Shown: piece by piece, positions 1 through 4,436 of the stretch
Numbering within the stretch: position 1 is the stretch's first letter
Layout of the letters: each line of letters begins with the position of its first letter
Source: a virus
Taxonomy: Duplodnaviria > Heunggongvirae > Uroviricota > Caudoviricetes
Virus record (IMG/VR): IMGVR_UViG_2582580962_000008
Strand: one strand, 5' to 3'
DNA: 4,436 nt
The notes under the pieces: model-generated
Database searches by the model: none
What the model was told of the DNA's origin: nothing
The model's input: the letters and a program-made list of their open reading frames with translations, nothing else
Translations under genes and position numbers: made by a program

Positions 1-1
1 A

Positions 2-220
2 GAGCAAGTGGCTGATTGTTACCGTCTGCGATGGCAAATTGAACTGGCTTTTAAGCGGCTCAAAAGTTTGCTGCACCTGGATGCTTTGCGTGCAAAGGAA
101 CCTGAACTCGCGAAAGCGTGGATATTTGCTAATCTACTCGCCGCATTTTTAATTGACGACATAATCCAGCCATCGCTGGATTTCCCCCCCAGAAGTGCCG
201 GATCCGAAAAGAAGAACTAA
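2..220 (+). CDS. insL: IS4-family transposase (IS186 InsL-like), C-terminal fragment; the 5' end is outside the window
   Basis: Frame is open from the window edge to TAA at 218-220. The translation ...VADCYRLRWQIELAFKRLKSLLHLDALRA... carries the Y-x2-R-x3-E-x6-K motif typical of IS4-family DDE transposases. The IS186 terminal repeat lies about 150 bp downstream. Confidence 0.8.
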   Translation, partial: EQVADCYRLRWQIELAFKRLKSLLHLDALRAKEPELAKAWIFANLLAAFLIDDIIQPSLDFPPRSAGSEKKN

Positions 221-368
221 CTCGTTGTGGAGAATAACAAAAATGGTCATCTGGAGCTTACAGGTGGCCATTCGTGGGACAGTATCCCTGACAGCCTACA
301 AAACGCAATTGAAGAACGCGAGGCATCGTCTTAACGAGGCACCGAGGCGTCGCATTCTTCAGATGGTT

Positions 369-391
369 CAACCCTTAAGTTAGCGCTTATG
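369..391. repeat. Right terminal inverted repeat of IS186 (23 bp)
   Basis: CAACCCTTAAGTTAGCGCTTATG is the reverse complement of CATAAGCGCTAACTTAAGGGTTG, the IS186 terminal sequence as I remember it. It is followed immediately by a GGG-TAAA-CCCC target-like sequence. Confidence 0.65.
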
Positions 392-630
392 GGGTAAACC
401 CCGAAACCATGCTGGAAGGTGTGAAACGCTACGCGGGCTGGGTATCTGCGATGGGCAATAGCGGCACACAATTTGTGAAACAGGCTGTCACGTTCTTTGG
501 TCCGGATCGTCATTTCGAAGAATCCTGGGAAGTTCCTGCGGTATCTGCAGCCAGACGCGAGGACCCGTACTTCAAAGCCAGTTACGACAACGTGGACTAC
601 AGCCAGATCCCGACAGGATTCAGGGGGTGA
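392..630 (+). pseudogene. Probable 3' remnant of a phage ORF interrupted by the IS186 insertion (hypothetical protein, C-terminal ~79 codons)
   Basis: Frame 1 is open from inside the IS end to TGA at 628-630. No convincing RBS precedes the internal ATG at 409. The stop overlaps the RBS and start of the next gene (GGGGGTGATCATG), a sign of a once-functional coupled gene. The translation (...GWVSAMGNSGTQFVKQAVTFFGPDRHFEESWEVP...YFKASYDNVDYSQIPTGFRG) matches no family I can name. Confidence 0.4.
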
Positions 631-632
631 TC

Positions 633-1121
633 ATGAGTCTGATGAACGATGTACAGAAATTCATTGAAGCCCATCCGGGGTGTACTTCAGGTGACATTGC
701 GGATGCTTTTGCTGGTTACTCACGACAGTGCGTTCTGCAGTCAGCAAGCAAGTTACGTCAGAGTGGCCGTGTGGCTCACTGTTGTGAAGGGAAAACACGC
801 AGACATTTCCCACACCAGGCTGAGATATCGCAGGAGGAGAAACTGCAACCTGTTCTTGAAACCATACCTGTGCGCAATTTCTATGTCGGCACTAACGATC
901 CCCGGGTGATTTTGTGCCTGACCCGCCAGGCGGAAGAACTGGAGTCCAGGGGCTTATACCGTCGTGCTGCAACCGTGTGGATGGCGGCATTCCGTGAAAG
1001 CCACTCCCAGCCAGAACGAAACAATTTTCTGGCGCGTCGTGAGCGGTGCTTACGGAAAAGCAGAAAGCGCGCTGTAGCGGGTGATGAGTGGTATCTGTCA
1101 GGGAATTACGTGGGGGCTTAA
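633..1121 (+). CDS. PerC-like transcriptional regulator family protein with an N-terminal extension (about 162 aa)
   Basis: ATG at 633 follows a GGGGG RBS (623-627); the track start at 627 is a GTG inside that RBS. The C-terminal half carries a PerC/Pch-type motif (AEELESRGLYRRAATVWMAAF), matched from memory against EPEC PerC and EHEC Pch proteins. The stop TAA at 1119-1121 overlaps the next start (TAATG). Confidence 0.55.
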   Translation: MSLMNDVQKFIEAHPGCTSGDIADAFAGYSRQCVLQSASKLRQSGRVAHCCEGKTRRHFPHQAEISQEEKLQPVLETIPVRNFYVGTNDPRVILCLTRQAEELESRGLYRRAATVWMAAFRESHSQPERNNFLARRERCLRKSRKRAVAGDEWYLSGNYVGA

Positions 1122-1774
1122 TGAGTAATAAATATTGCCAGGCGCTGGTGGAACTACGGAACAAACCAGCCCATGAACTGAAGGAAGTGGGCGATCAGTG
1201 GCGCACGCCGGACAACATTTTCTGGGGAATTAACACCCTGTTTGGCCCGTTTGTTCTGGATCTGTTTACTGACGGTGATAACGCCAAATGTGCCGCGTAT
1301 TACACGGCGGAAGACAACGCGCTGGCACATGACTGGTCAGAACGTCTTGCGGAGCTTAAAGGTGCTGCCTTTGGTAATCCCCCGTACAGCCGCGCCAGTC
1401 AGCATGAGGGACAATACATCACCGGCATGCGTTACATCATGAAGCATGCCAGTGCCATGCGTGATAAAGGCGGGCGCTATGTTTTCCTGATCAAAGCGGC
1501 CACCAGCGAAGTGTGGTGGCCGGAAGATGCAGATCATATTGCTTTTATTCGCGGGCGTATTGGTTTTGAACTGCCAGCCTGGTTTATCCCGAAAGACGAA
1601 AAGCAGGTGCCAACAGGTGCTTTCTTCGCTGGTGCTATTGCTGTTTTCGACAAGACCTGGAAGGGAGCGGCAATCAGCTACATCGGGCGCGATGAACTTG
1701 AGGCATGTGGTGAGGCATTTCTGGCGCAGGTTCGCCAGCAGGCGGAAAAACTGGTCAGGGAGATGGCGGCATGA
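1121..1774 (+). CDS. Phage Dam-family DNA N6-adenine methyltransferase (orphan)
   Basis: ATG at 1121 is preceded by a GGGGG RBS (1112-1116) and overlaps the upstream stop; the track start at 1088 is an upstream GTG. The protein has the (D/N)PPY catalytic motif of N6-adenine methyltransferases (AAFGNPPYS) and an N-terminal WRTPDNIFWG...FVLDLFTDGDNAKC region typical of the phage Dam family. The stop overlaps the next start (ATGA at 1771-1774). Confidence 0.85.
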   Translation: MSNKYCQALVELRNKPAHELKEVGDQWRTPDNIFWGINTLFGPFVLDLFTDGDNAKCAAYYTAEDNALAHDWSERLAELKGAAFGNPPYSRASQHEGQYITGMRYIMKHASAMRDKGGRYVFLIKAATSEVWWPEDADHIAFIRGRIGFELPAWFIPKDEKQVPTGAFFAGAIAVFDKTWKGAAISYIGRDELEACGEAFLAQVRQQAEKLVREMAA

Positions 1775-2097
1775 CGACATTAACTCAATGCCAGCAGCAG
1801 GTGCTGGATATGCTGATTTCTTATCAGAAAGAACGTGGCTTCCCGCCAACCAATCAGGAGGTGGCAACCATGCTGGGATACCGTTCGGTGAATGCAGCGG
1901 TGGAGCATCTTCGCGCACTGGAGAAAAAAGGTGTCATCACGATAAAGCGTGGCGTGGCCCGGGGTATCACTCTTCATACCGCGGTGAAGGACGACGACAG
2001 CGAGGCGGTCGGGATTATCCGCGCCCTGCTTGCCGGTGAGGCAAACGCCAGGCTGCGTGCAGCCCACTGGTTACATGAGAGGGGCCTGAAAGTATGA
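1771..2097 (+). CDS. LexA-like protein consisting of the N-terminal winged-helix DNA-binding domain only (108 aa; no S24 peptidase domain)
   Basis: A GGGAG RBS (1758-1762) precedes the ATG. The protein aligns by eye over about 65 residues with the E. coli LexA N-terminus (LTxxQQxVxDxI...GxPPTxxExAxxLGxRSxNAAxEHLxALxKKGVIxIxxGxxRGIxL), including the RS-NAA-EHL recognition-helix region. It ends about 40 residues after the DNA-binding domain with a LexA hinge-like LLAGEANA segment and no Ser/Lys catalytic core. The stop overlaps the rusA start (ATGA). Confidence 0.85.
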   Translation: MTTLTQCQQQVLDMLISYQKERGFPPTNQEVATMLGYRSVNAAVEHLRALEKKGVITIKRGVARGITLHTAVKDDDSEAVGIIRALLAGEANARLRAAHWLHERGLKV

Positions 2098-2489
2098 AGC
2101 TAATACTGCCTTTTCCGCCCAGCGTGAACACGTACTGGCGACACCCCAACAAAGGGGCGTTTGCTGGTAAGAGCCTGATAAGCGCGGCGGGGCGAAAATT
2201 CCAGAGCGCGGCGTGTGCAGCAATAGTTGAGCAGTTACGTCGTCTGCCGAAACCAACGTCGGCACCTGCTTCAGTGGAGATCGTGTTGTTTCCTCCGGAT
2301 AACCGGATCCGCGATCTGGACAACTATAACAAGGCGCTGTTTGACGCCCTGACCCACGCGGGTGTGTGGGAAGACGACAGCCAGGTGAAAAGAATGCTGG
2401 TGGAGTGGGGACCGGTTATCCCGGAAGGGAAGGTCGAGATCACTATCAGTAAGTACGAAAAAGCGAGTTGCAAATTAGCAACTCGGTAA
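2094..2489 (+). CDS. rusA: RusA-family Holliday junction resolvase (crossover junction endodeoxyribonuclease)
   Basis: The N-terminal LPFPPSVNTYWRH matches the RusA LPWPPSxNxYYRH motif. The catalytic block RDLDNYNKALFDALTHAGVWEDDSQV corresponds to E. coli RusA D70/D72/K76/D91 ([28 protein letters not shown]). ATG at 2094 overlaps the upstream stop; TAA at 2487-2489. Confidence 0.9.
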   Translation: MKLILPFPPSVNTYWRHPNKGAFAGKSLISAAGRKFQSAACAAIVEQLRRLPKPTSAPASVEIVLFPPDNRIRDLDNYNKALFDALTHAGVWEDDSQVKRMLVEWGPVIPEGKVEITISKYEKASCKLATR

Positions 2490-2534
2490 CGGAATTGAGC
2501 AACACCCTAAATTTGGGTATTACCTCGTTAAAGA

Positions 2535-2554
2535 TACTGTATTTATGAACAGTG
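2535..2554. promoter_or_regulatory. LexA (SOS) box-like operator: TACTGTATTTATGAACAGTG
   Basis: CTGT-N8-ACAG with an AT-rich spacer, matching the E. coli SOS box consensus TACTGTATATATATACAGTA at 16 of 20 positions, with both CTGT/ACAG half-sites intact. This is the only CTGT-N8-ACAG in the window. It sits in the intergenic region 98 bp upstream of the KilA-N gene start and directly abuts a -35-like TTGATA. Confidence 0.6.
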
Positions 2555-2559
2555 TATCC

Positions 2560-2588
2560 TTGATAACTATTAAAAATCGCAGTAAGTT
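2560..2588 (+). promoter_or_regulatory. Putative sigma70 promoter for the KilA-N/DUF968 genes (-35 TTGATA at 2560-2565, 17-bp spacer, weak -10 TAAGTT at 2583-2588)
   Basis: The -35 is a 5/6 match to TTGACA and the -10 only a 3/6 match to TATAAT. Placement is tentative; the promoter could equally overlap the SOS box itself. Confidence 0.25.
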
Positions 2589-2651
2589 CATCCTGCATCA
2601 ACGAAAAGGGAGTGCAGTCCCGCTCGTGGATAAAAATTTGTGGAGAAACCA

Positions 2652-3467
2652 ATGAATCAGTTGCTTGTAATTGATGGCGTTTCTGTGCGCCAGTACTTCG
2701 AATCTAACTACTGTCTTAACGACCTTCAGAAAGCTGCTCTTCTTGCCGCTGGTGAGAATCGCTCCTCCCGTTCGCTGGAAGTTCACGAGTTTATGCGTCG
2801 TCCTGAAACGAAGGCTCTTGTGGAATTATTGGAAGAAGAAACTACGGGAGATTCCCGTAGTATTCCTGTCATCACCATTCAGGGGCGCAATGGTGGGACG
2901 TATGTCTGTAAAGAGCTGGTCTATGCATATGCAATGTGGATCAGCCCGGCATTCAGCTTAAAAGTGATACGTACTTTTGATGCGCTTCATAATTCATCAC
3001 CAGAAGAAACCACATCCGACAAAATTAAATCCGGGGTCATTCTGCTTGAATCAGCAGCAAAGACTCTAAATCTGTCAAACTCCTCGAAACTTGGTGCATA
3101 CCAGAAATTATCAAAGGTAGCTGGTCTTCCTGAACTTATGCCGATCTATGCCATTGATGCACCTGCTGATGCGCCAGATGGTTCAAGCCGCCCTACGCTG
3201 TCGCTGAGTGCACTGCTGAAGCAGTATGGTATCCGCCTGACGGCTAATCAGGCATATCACCAGATGGCGAAGCTGGGGATCGTTGAACAACGCGAACGAT
3301 ACAGCCGTACCGCGATTAACAACATCAAAAAATTCTGGTCGCTGACAGCGAAAGGCTGCATGTTCGGCAAGAACATCACCAGTCCTGCAAATCCGCGCGA
3401 GACGCAGCCGCATTTCTTCGAATCCCGATTCCCTGAGCTGTTAAAGCTGCTCGATACCGTTCATTGA
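2652..3467 (+). CDS. KilA-N domain protein (antirepressor-like or Roi-like DNA-binding protein; C-terminal domain uncharacterised)
   Basis: ATG at 2652 follows a GGAG RBS (2642-2645) with a 6-nt spacer; the track start at 2640 is a GTG overlapping that RBS. The N-terminal domain has the KilA-N hallmark block GTYVCKELVYAYAMWISPAFSLKVI (family pattern GTWVHPxLAxxFAxWLSPxF) and the upstream YCLNDLQKAA segment. The stop TGA at 3465-3467 overlaps the RBS of the next gene. Confidence 0.8.
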   Translation: MNQLLVIDGVSVRQYFESNYCLNDLQKAALLAAGENRSSRSLEVHEFMRRPETKALVELLEEETTGDSRSIPVITIQGRNGGTYVCKELVYAYAMWISPAFSLKVIRTFDALHNSSPEETTSDKIKSGVILLESAAKTLNLSNSSKLGAYQKLSKVAGLPELMPIYAIDAPADAPDGSSRPTLSLSALLKQYGIRLTANQAYHQMAKLGIVEQRERYSRTAINNIKKFWSLTAKGCMFGKNITSPANPRETQPHFFESRFPELLKLLDTVH

Positions 3468-3474
3468 GGTGACC

Positions 3475-4436
3475 GTGAGAGCACTACTGACCCCTGAAAT
3501 TGCCCCGCGTATGGGGATCGTATTGTTCAGACCAGGTTCAGAGCTGATGCCCCTGTTTATGCAGGGGCGTGTCCTGCTGGAGCCTGAGCCGGAGCGTTAT
3601 TCATCTTTCGCCAGTGGTGCCGTTCCGGCGGCATCACAACCGCTGGCGGATGATCCTGCCGTTCGGGCCGTGTTCCGCAATGAGGCAGTGATCCGTCGTG
3701 CTGGTGGCGTGGAATGTCTTGAAAGCTGGTTACTTCGTGAAAAAGGCTGCCAGTGGCCTCATTCCGACTGGCACAGCGAGAACATGACCACAATGCGACA
3801 CGCTCCGGGTGCAATCCGTCTGTGCTGGCACTGCGATAATCAGCTGCGCGATCAGTTCACGGAACGGCTGGAATCAATGGCAACGGATAACTGTGCCCGC
3901 TGGGTGTTGTCTGTTGTGCGTCGGGATCTCGGTTTTGATGACAGTCACGTTGTGACAATGCCGGAACTGTGCTGGTGGCTGATTCGTAATGATCTGGCGG
4001 ATGCCTTACCGGAAAGTGCAGCCCGTAAGGCCCTGAGATTACCGAAGCCTGTTGTGCCGTCTGTCACCCGGGAAAGTGACCTTGTGCCTTCGGTTACTGC
4101 CACCAGCATCATCCAGGATAAGGCGAAAAAGGTGCTGGCGCTGAAAGTGGATCCGGAGTCGCCGGAGTCTTTTATGTTACGCCCAAAACGTCGTCGCTGG
4201 GTTAATGAAAAGTACACGCGCTGGGTTAAGACGCAGCCGTGTGCATGTTGTGGTAAGCCAGCCGACGATCCTCATCACCTGATTGGTCATGGTCAGGGTG
4301 GAATGGGTACAAAAGCGCATGACCTTTTTGTGTTGCCTTTGTGCAGAAAACACCATGACGAACTGCATGCGGATACCGTGGCATTTGAAGAGAAGTATGG
4401 TTCCCAACTGGAGCTGATATTTCGTTTTATCGATCG
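3475..4436 (+). CDS. DUF968-like prophage protein with a C-terminal Cys/His (HNH-like or zinc-binding) cluster; the 3' end is outside the window
   Basis: An uninterrupted frame-1 ORF runs from GTG at 3475 (GAGG RBS at 3466-3469, 5-nt spacer) to the window end, about 320 codons. It is absent from the track because no stop falls within the window. The C-terminal region CACCGKPADDPHHLIGHGQGGMGTKAHDLFVLPLCRKHHDELH is the conserved DUF968-type Cys/His block as I recall it (K-12 Qin YdfU is the family member I have in mind). The start codon choice (3469, 3475 or ATG 3511) is uncertain. Confidence 0.8.
   Translation, partial: MRALLTPEIAPRMGIVLFRPGSELMPLFMQGRVLLEPEPERYSSFASGAVPAASQPLADDPAVRAVFRNEAVIRRAGGVECLESWLLREKGCQWPHSDWHSENMTTMRHAPGAIRLCWHCDNQLRDQFTERLESMATDNCARWVLSVVRRDLGFDDSHVVTMPELCWWLIRNDLADALPESAARKALRLPKPVVPSVTRESDLVPSVTATSIIQDKAKKVLALKVDPESPESFMLRPKRRRWVNEKYTRWVKTQPCACCGKPADDPHHLIGHGQGGMGTKAHDLFVLPLCRKHHDELHADTVAFEEKYGSQLELIFRFID

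Follow-up and report, generated by a model that had tools for sequence, protein, structure and literature searches.

The window analysed here, 4,436 nucleotides (nt) of Caudoviricetes DNA (IMG/VR virus record IMGVR_UViG_2582580962_000008), ends in a genuine gene of the YdfU/DUF968 family, and positions 3475..4436 on the plus strand hold its 5′ 97%, codons 1-320 of 329. The product is, with very little doubt, a DUF968/His-Me finger protein: its zinc-ligand and catalytic positions are conserved, its C-terminal domain is predicted to adopt an HNH fold, and its gene keeps the same place in the gene order of related phages. As a whole, the evidence is best explained, and we hold this view with moderate confidence, by a two-module protein in which an active C-terminal HNH nuclease would carry out nicking linked to recombination or replication and an N-terminal domain would serve for binding. 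The gene is already well known as a routinely annotated member of a published family, and the gene call itself matters little; novelty is low because the HNH assignment was published in 2017. Its role is a modest question: many temperate phages, Shiga toxin (Stx)-converting phages among them, carry the gene in the slot that immediately precedes the late-gene activator. What the window adds is a LexA box upstream of the KilA-N/DUF968 gene pair and a probable second, degenerate zinc ββα module.

Reading frame and family membership

The plus-strand frame opens at GTG 3475, 10 codons 3′ of a same-frame stop, and runs to the window end through 320 codons without a stop (translation of 3475-4434). 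An earlier note on this DNA, made from the letters and a list of open reading frames (ORFs), had proposed that the list missed this gene, and this proved correct: the ORF tool leaves out any frame that extends beyond its source. As the note also had it, the frame is the longest gene in the window, since the KilA-N gene (275 amino acids [aa]) and Dam (228 aa) rank next, and exactly three ORFs are listed antisense to it at the default cut-off of 60 aa. These lie on the minus strand at 3557-3814 (85 aa), 3945-4217 (90 aa), and 4177-4407 (76 aa). The plus-strand call is supported by the translation, a RefSeq equivalent, Pfam and PHROG matches, and the substitution pattern. GTG 3475 is favoured as the start by the N terminus shared among homologues, which begin M-R-x-L-L, and by the RefSeq start, which is equivalent to 3475; a second GTG at 3469, two codons upstream, would overlap the Shine-Dalgarno sequence.

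The window belongs to a lambdoid prophage of Escherichia coli, and positions 391-4436 are 99% identical to prophages in many complete genomes. In one of these, the prophage of strain DETEC-S792 (L001, 99% identical), a coding sequence annotated “DUF968 domain-containing protein” begins at the base equivalent to 3475, comprises 329 codons, and has its stop 28 nt outside the window, with the antiterminator Q gene next; the window therefore lacks just nine codons and the stop. Over 2490-4436, the best E. coli record reached 98.5% identity, and none was 100% identical. Differences at codon positions 1/2/3 of the plus-strand frame number 32/20/143 against phage ST64B, 1/2/38 against phage SfV, and 2/2/32 against the DETEC-S792 prophage, and this third-position excess indicates purifying selection on the frame. 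The earlier note had considered that a stop codon or frameshift just past the window might make the gene a pseudogene; the relatives carry an intact 329-aa gene. Given these relatives and the third-position bias, a pseudogene was rejected for the lineage, the window copy's own last 28 nt being unread.

Membership of DUF968, which the earlier note had recognized, is clear from the Pfam model (PF06147), matched at 260.4 bits against a cut-off of 27.8 (E value, 1e-77), with aa 160-320 aligned to profile positions 2-165 of 171. The note had also allowed for profile searches that would find neither DUF968 nor HNH similarity. They found both: PHROG 96, “HNH endonuclease,” was matched end to end (1-329 on 1-334 of 334; E value, 9.5e-177), and Pfam HNHc_6 (PF16784) was matched at aa 251-308, barely above its threshold (26.8 bits against 26.6; E value, 4.4e-6). 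The HNHc_6 match is restricted to profile positions 123-184 of 204, which are the HNH core, and leaves the NinB/Orf-like N-terminal part of that model unmatched. The lambda NinG/Rap model (PF05766) gave no match in the Pfam scan of the window protein, and NCBIfam provided no family for it.

The window gene is the orthologue of SfV orf45 and mEp460 gp049, with 98% identity over the full length, and a paralogue of ydfU in the Qin prophage of E. coli K-12 (58% over the whole length, 329/349 aa). All share the two-module architecture of the window protein, with no difference of substance. The family is large, with 1707 clusters in a 90% database, some of which have thousands of members of identical length (329 aa), and 3106 representatives at 50% identity (E ≤ 1e-3). 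The gene occurs in 187 phage records, which include SfV, SfII, and mEp460 (98%), many Stx2 phages, and ST64B (86%), as well as Klebsiella, Pantoea, Hafnia, and Vibrio phages. Part of the stretch 2490-4436, which spans the LexA box and the KilA-N and DUF968 genes, matches 3965 of 5426 complete E. coli genomes, and thousands of genomes of E. coli, Shigella, and Salmonella carry the annotation “DUF968 domain-containing protein” or “HNH endonuclease.” As a separate observation, ydfU is a genome-wide association signal for haemolytic uraemic syndrome, where it adjoins stx2 and Q.

The same data bear on the idea that the gene is a mobile homing endonuclease, or a decaying pseudogene of no use to the phage. 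Homing endonucleases commonly have HNH domains, the gene in ST64B is broken into two coding sequences, and the window copy has no stop codon within the window. Against this, the gene occupies the same syntenic slot in phages that have diverged from 98% down to 45% identity, it is conserved over its full length in hundreds of representatives, its third-position bias is strong, and clusters contain thousands of 329-aa members, all of which makes the idea very improbable. The two coding sequences of ST64B (sb47/sb48, L011 3037-3991) overlap, and this copy is either a frameshifted pseudogene or an error in a 2002-era record.

The Cys/His cluster and the N-terminal module

The C-terminal ββα-metal (HNH/His-Me finger) nuclease domain lies at 4150..4436 on the plus strand (aa 226-320 of 226-329) and includes an invariant K238 within the basic stretch RPKRRRW. 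The Cys/His cluster, at 4240..4368 on the plus strand, reads C256-A-C258-C259-G...H267-H268...H272...H282...C290...H293-H294...H298, just as the earlier note had described it. Putative zinc ligands are C256, C259, C290, and H293, and catalytic-type residues are H267/H268, D283, H294, and H298. Conservation was counted per column in an alignment of 37 full-length homologues down to 25% identity. Among the ligands, C256 is present in all 37 sequences, C259 in 30, and C290 in 32; position 293 is His in 15 and Cys in 15, and such a His/Cys swap is typical zinc-ligand behaviour. Among the catalytic-type positions, D283 is present in 37/37, H268 in 34/37, and H267, H294, and H298 each in 33/37. Together with the HNHc_6 and PHROG 96 matches, the conservation of both sets of positions upholds the reading of the cluster as a zinc-binding or HNH-type domain, which the earlier note had put forward.

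The AlphaFold model, with a mean predicted local distance difference test (pLDDT) score of 89, supports the predicted ββα-metal fold that defines the His-Me finger superfamily. The protein has the His at the end of strand β1 and the metal-binding His/Asn/Asp on the helix that are expected of such enzymes, and these align with H157, H185, and H189 of Gp16, a nickase of phage ΦNM1. Comparison of the family profile with Gp16 by hhalign gave a probability of 95.3% (E value, 2.4e-8) over 127 columns, and the corresponding probabilities for phage P1 Ref and E. coli YbcO were 83.5% and 83.3%. The published active-site residue of Ref, H153, falls outside the aligned block and is hence unmapped. A single-protein search of the PDB gave just a weak match to YbcO (E value, 1.2). 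In this domain, C256, C259, C290, and H293 would hold a structural zinc, the general base would be H268 at the end of strand β1, and the catalytic metal would be bound by H294 and H298 on the helix together with the invariant D283.

The N-terminal module (aa 1-190; 3475..4044, plus strand) contains a β-hairpin and a helix at aa 104-124, and no Pfam family was matched by aa 1-159. It is joined to the C-terminal domain by a linker (aa 191-225; 4045..4149, plus strand) in which model confidence is lower and whose length varies among homologues. Column conservation marks out a putative zinc knuckle, C92-Q93...[H/C]100...C117-W118-H119-[C/H]120-D121-N122, at 3748..3840 on the plus strand. C92 is present in 36/36 sequences, Q93 in 33/37, C117 in 37/37, W118 in 36/37, and D121 in 34/37; positions 100 and 120 hold either His or Cys (18 His and 18 Cys at 100, 24 His and 13 Cys at 120). 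In the model the ligand-like residues flank the β-hairpin (104-109 and 112-117) and the helix (118-124), a ββα arrangement. Position 109, at the end of the first strand where the general-base His would be expected, is variable (Tyr in 10, His in 8, Val in 4).

An internal duplication was sought by hhalign of the N-terminal against the C-terminal sub-alignment; the result was colinear and not significant (E value, 0.013-0.018; probability, ∼2%). This non-significant alignment pairs C117 with C290, 120 with 293, D121 with H294, and L124 with L297. From the conserved columns and the model, it is reasonable to infer that the N-terminal half contains a second zinc ββα module, degenerate and probably without catalytic activity. 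The N-terminal ∼190 residues form a family-specific domain that would bind DNA or a partner.

Proposed function and comparison with related proteins

The DUF968 gene is the last of a delayed-early, “nin-like” operon, immediately 5′ of Q. It directly precedes a Q-like antiterminator gene in all lambdoid contexts examined (L001, L002, SfV, mEp460, ST64B, AH07, yong2, HannyBb, and K-12 Qin), and in P1 the homologue directly precedes lpa, the late promoter activator gene. The order in the window, PerC-Dam-LexA_DBD-RusA-KilA-N-DUF968-(Q), is found unchanged in SfV orf40-46 and mEp460 044-050, and RusA is often found just upstream of the DUF968 gene.

DUF968 was placed with DUF1364/YbcO in His-Me finger group 7, with YdfU named as a member, by Jablonska et al. 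in 2017, who reported RusA, Q, and antirepressor genes as neighbours and suggested a role in recombination (PMC5714182). A zinc-finger HNH motif in DUF968, and fusions to Orf, Erf, Rad52, and RusA, had been described by Curtis et al. in 2014 (PMC4118853). The first relative to be characterized experimentally is ΦNM1 Gp16 (2026), an early-expressed, RecA-interacting, and RecA-stimulated nickase (PMC12817073). Gp16 deletion causes a severe defect in replication of the phage DNA; its residues C148, C181, and H184 are needed for growth inhibition, and C181 is needed for DNA cleavage (PMC12817073).

Gp16 and the window protein belong to the same HNH subclass and share an identical motif, CxxC-9-H...CxxHHxxxH, in which C145-xx-C148...H157...C181-xx-H184-H185-xxx-H189 of Gp16 corresponds to C256-xx-C259...H268...C290-xx-H293-H294-xxx-H298 of the window protein. 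Gp16 also passes the DUF968 cut-off, and its gene is likewise an early one, close to RusA and replication genes. The two differ in their N termini: Gp16 has a NinB/Orf-like domain (its C terminus being HNHc_6), whereas the window protein has an unrelated module of ∼190 aa. P1 Ref (PDB 3plw; Pfam RecA_dep_nuc), an HNH endonuclease that cuts RecA-bound DNA only (PMC4330346), has a disordered basic N terminus where the window protein has a folded domain, and its gene is located elsewhere and is controlled by C1 in P1. YbcO of E. coli prophage DLP12 (PDB 3g27; Pfam YbcO/DUF1364) is a 96-aa single-domain protein with a CCCC zinc site and no N-terminal module. The usual functional analogy is lambda Rap (NinG), a His-Me finger, structure-specific endonuclease that acts on recombination intermediates and whose gene lies late in the nin region. 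Rap falls in His-Me group 24, in contrast to group 7 for DUF968 (PMC5714182).

Because Gp16 and Ref work in this way and the RusA neighbourhood fits, we predict that the product of the delayed-early operon end is a metal-dependent DNA nickase or structure-specific nuclease. Its target would be recombination or replication intermediates, to which it might be directed, or on which it might be stimulated, by RecA. That the protein is an active nuclease in DNA recombination or replication seems somewhat probable, and a requirement for RecA is doubtful, with only fold similarity and homology to Gp16 pointing to RecA-dependent cleavage. If YdfU-type proteins do act like Gp16, they would form a widespread link between the RecA/SOS status of the host and the replication or induction of lambdoid phages.

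Several observations weigh against an active enzyme of this kind. A Foldseek search of the PDB gave no significant match (the weak matches were also HNH enzymes), and nothing was found when the family sequence profile was compared with PDB sequences. The window protein had no match to the Ref family model (PF16786) at E ≤ 0.01, and YdfU reached 17.8 bits with that model, under the cut-off of 26.9. The stop codon of the gene lies outside the window. In the literature on DUF968, YdfU, PF06147, and pdcB, no study was found that addressed what a lambdoid YdfU-type protein does, so the earlier note's description of the gene as uncharacterized in lambdoid prophages holds. In P1, PdcB is dispensable for plaque formation and was non-essential in a CRISPR interference screen (PMC10695390).

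P1 PdcB and its P7 counterpart Upf95.7 are full-length homologues of the window protein (26% identity) with both modules, and are encoded just 5′ of the late-gene activator gene lpa. PdcB carries Y instead of H268, Q instead of H294, and E instead of H298 and is therefore probably inactive as an HNH enzyme, while both zinc-ligand sets and D283 are kept; the branch was read from P1 pdcB (L009 3001-4041) and from alignment rows P0191, P0193, and P0251. The loss of these residues implies that the conserved role of the family may not need catalysis, a further point against the nuclease. The P1 gene also lies 3′ of the LexA-regulated humD and of phd-doc.

The main alternative follows from this branch: the protein would be a non-catalytic zinc-finger protein that binds DNA, RNA, or a partner, with a regulatory or architectural role tied to late-gene activation, and the HNH residues would be kept in some branches only. 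It accounts for the retention of the zinc ligands and D283 in PdcB with Y/Q/E at the catalytic positions, for a late-gene activator (Q in lambdoid phages, lpa in P1) as the most conserved neighbour, and for an N-terminal module that resembles an inactivated ββα finger. In Gp16, too, the zinc-finger mutants lost the phenotype fully and the catalytic His mutants only partly (PMC12817073). However, the retention of H268, H294, and H298 in the branch of the window protein (33 to 34 of the 37 sequences) is hard to explain without catalysis, and placement before Q may merely mark the end of the early operon. We regard a non-catalytic protein as unlikely and continue to favour a nuclease acting in recombination or replication.

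A nuclease could also be directed at the host or at a competitor, as a toxin or in superinfection exclusion, defence, or anti-defence, rather than being a recombination enzyme. Overexpression of Gp16 arrests growth of Staphylococcus aureus and condenses the nucleoid (PMC12817073), and a very strong Rho-dependent terminator 5′ of Qin ydfU was read by its discoverers as silencing of toxic prophage genes (PMC9160355). Moreover, the ∼73% of complete E. coli genomes that match part of 2490-4436 often carry it in defective prophages. This reading nevertheless appears improbable: PADLOC has no defence model that matches the DUF968 protein, the slot is part of a conserved early operon and not a moron or defence hotspot, and no immunity or antitoxin partner is evident.

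Terminase-associated HNH proteins are widespread, and an HNH domain in a temperate tailed phage might, like HK97 gp74, aid cos cleavage and packaging. In all contexts examined, however, the DUF968 gene is in the early region before Q and not beside terminase or portal genes, and in SfV another HNH gene, orf53, lies at the end of the genome near the packaging genes; a terminase partner is thus extremely improbable. Both this idea and that of a homing endonuclease were rejected on synteny.

KilA-N junction, LexA box, and prophage context

The KilA-N domain gene lies upstream at 2652..3467 on the plus strand (ATG 2652 as in RefSeq; the ORF opens at GTG 2640). Its junction with the DUF968 gene (3465..3477, plus strand) consists of the KilA-N stop TGA at 3465-3467, a GAGG Shine-Dalgarno sequence at 3466-3469, which the stop overlaps, and GTG 3475-3477, with 7 nt between stop and start. 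This close packing is compatible with translational coupling, which the earlier note had suggested together with shared SOS control.

Such control has a sequence basis in a canonical LexA (SOS) box upstream of KilA-N, TACTGTATTTATGAACAGTG, at 2535-2554 on the plus strand. The box lies in the 162-nt spacer between RusA and KilA-N, ∼100 nt 5′ of the KilA-N start, and by direct count matches the LexA consensus TACTGTATATATATACAGTA at 16 of 20 positions. Its CTGT-N8-ACAG core (2537-2552) occurs once in the window against 0.07 expected by chance, and a search with this pattern retrieves both of the LexA sites annotated in P1. The box is conserved in the DETEC-S792 prophage and in that of strain OkiPb01701 (L002). 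It is absent from SfV and mEp460, in which the RusA/KilA-N spacer is just 19 nt; the window differs from these two phages in its longer spacer with the box and in an insertion sequence (IS) end, of IS421, upstream. No LexA box was found directly 5′ of the DUF968 gene in other contexts; the box is particular to the present KilA-N module. In the promoter scan no sigma-70 consensus promoter turned up beside the box, the frequency of terminator-like sites did not exceed that in shuffles, and Rfam and repeat scans of the window gave nothing relevant.

The position of the box suggests a LexA-controlled KilA-N gene, possibly for an antirepressor, and we infer from it that the DUF968 gene may be co-regulated with KilA-N in the SOS response. 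SOS-linked antirepressors have precedents in Tum of coliphage 186 and in the Gifsy antirepressors. The KilA-N pairing is local rather than a conserved two-gene system, because the upstream neighbour varies. It is KilA-N in the window, SfV, and mEp460; Pantoea phage AH07 and Hafnia phage yong2 have RusA there, its stop overlapping the start of the DUF968 gene; and in OkiPb01701 (L002 10750-12651) a 516-nt hypothetical gene separates KilA-N from DUF968. The OkiPb01701 prophage also has a second RusA gene between DUF968 and the antiterminator, which is an instance of modular shuffling around the gene.

A more elaborate version of the nuclease reading joins these elements: the protein would be a tandem ββα-zinc-finger enzyme whose inactivated N-terminal module guides the C-terminal nickase to RecA-bound or branched DNA, and in the present prophage lineage KilA-N/YdfU would be a LexA-controlled cassette. 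We consider this a long shot. Were it true, the cassette would fire directly on DNA damage, even in defective prophages without an immunity region, and a gene found in most E. coli genomes would influence SOS outcomes, for instance prophage induction, recombination, and the lethality of antibiotics, as is the case for P1 Ref and ciprofloxacin.

Further features of the prophages were noted. Window positions 1-390 are the right end of an IS4-family IS421 element, with the transposase C terminus at 8-220; the element truncates an upstream prophage gene, of which just the last ∼240 nt are left (ORF 409-630). An identical IS421 junction occurs in bovine E. coli OkiPb strains (L002 7036-8558), where the IS lies directly after the prophage integrase gene, which indicates that the OkiPb prophage is defective and has lost its immunity and replication region. 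In the DETEC-S792 prophage, genes for a DNA cytosine methyltransferase and an “ATP-dependent nuclease” are found between Q and a tRNA cluster (L001 10456-13290, minus strand), and the pair resembles a defence or moron element inserted into the Q-to-lysis slot.

Two observations concern LexA-type elements elsewhere. The window encodes, at 1771-2097 on the plus strand, a 108-aa protein with a LexA DNA-binding domain only (Pfam LexA_DNA_bind, 2.9e-19) and without the S24 autocleavage domain; its gene is ∼440 nt 5′ of the LexA box and corresponds to SfV orf42. As judged from its domain content, this protein would be a phage-encoded, non-cleavable LexA-like binder and could act on the box. Perfect CTGT-N8-ACAG sequences are also present at the start of a DNA methyltransferase gene 3′ of Q in SfV (L003 6360-6375), mEp460 (L004 7050-7065), and Hafnia phage yong2 (L013 4730-4745), and could represent a conserved LexA site or merely conservation of coding sequence. 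A second CTGT-N8-ACAG sequence is found in the early region of the DETEC-S792 prophage, at L001 3698-3713, between ymfL and the DUF4222/Rha genes.

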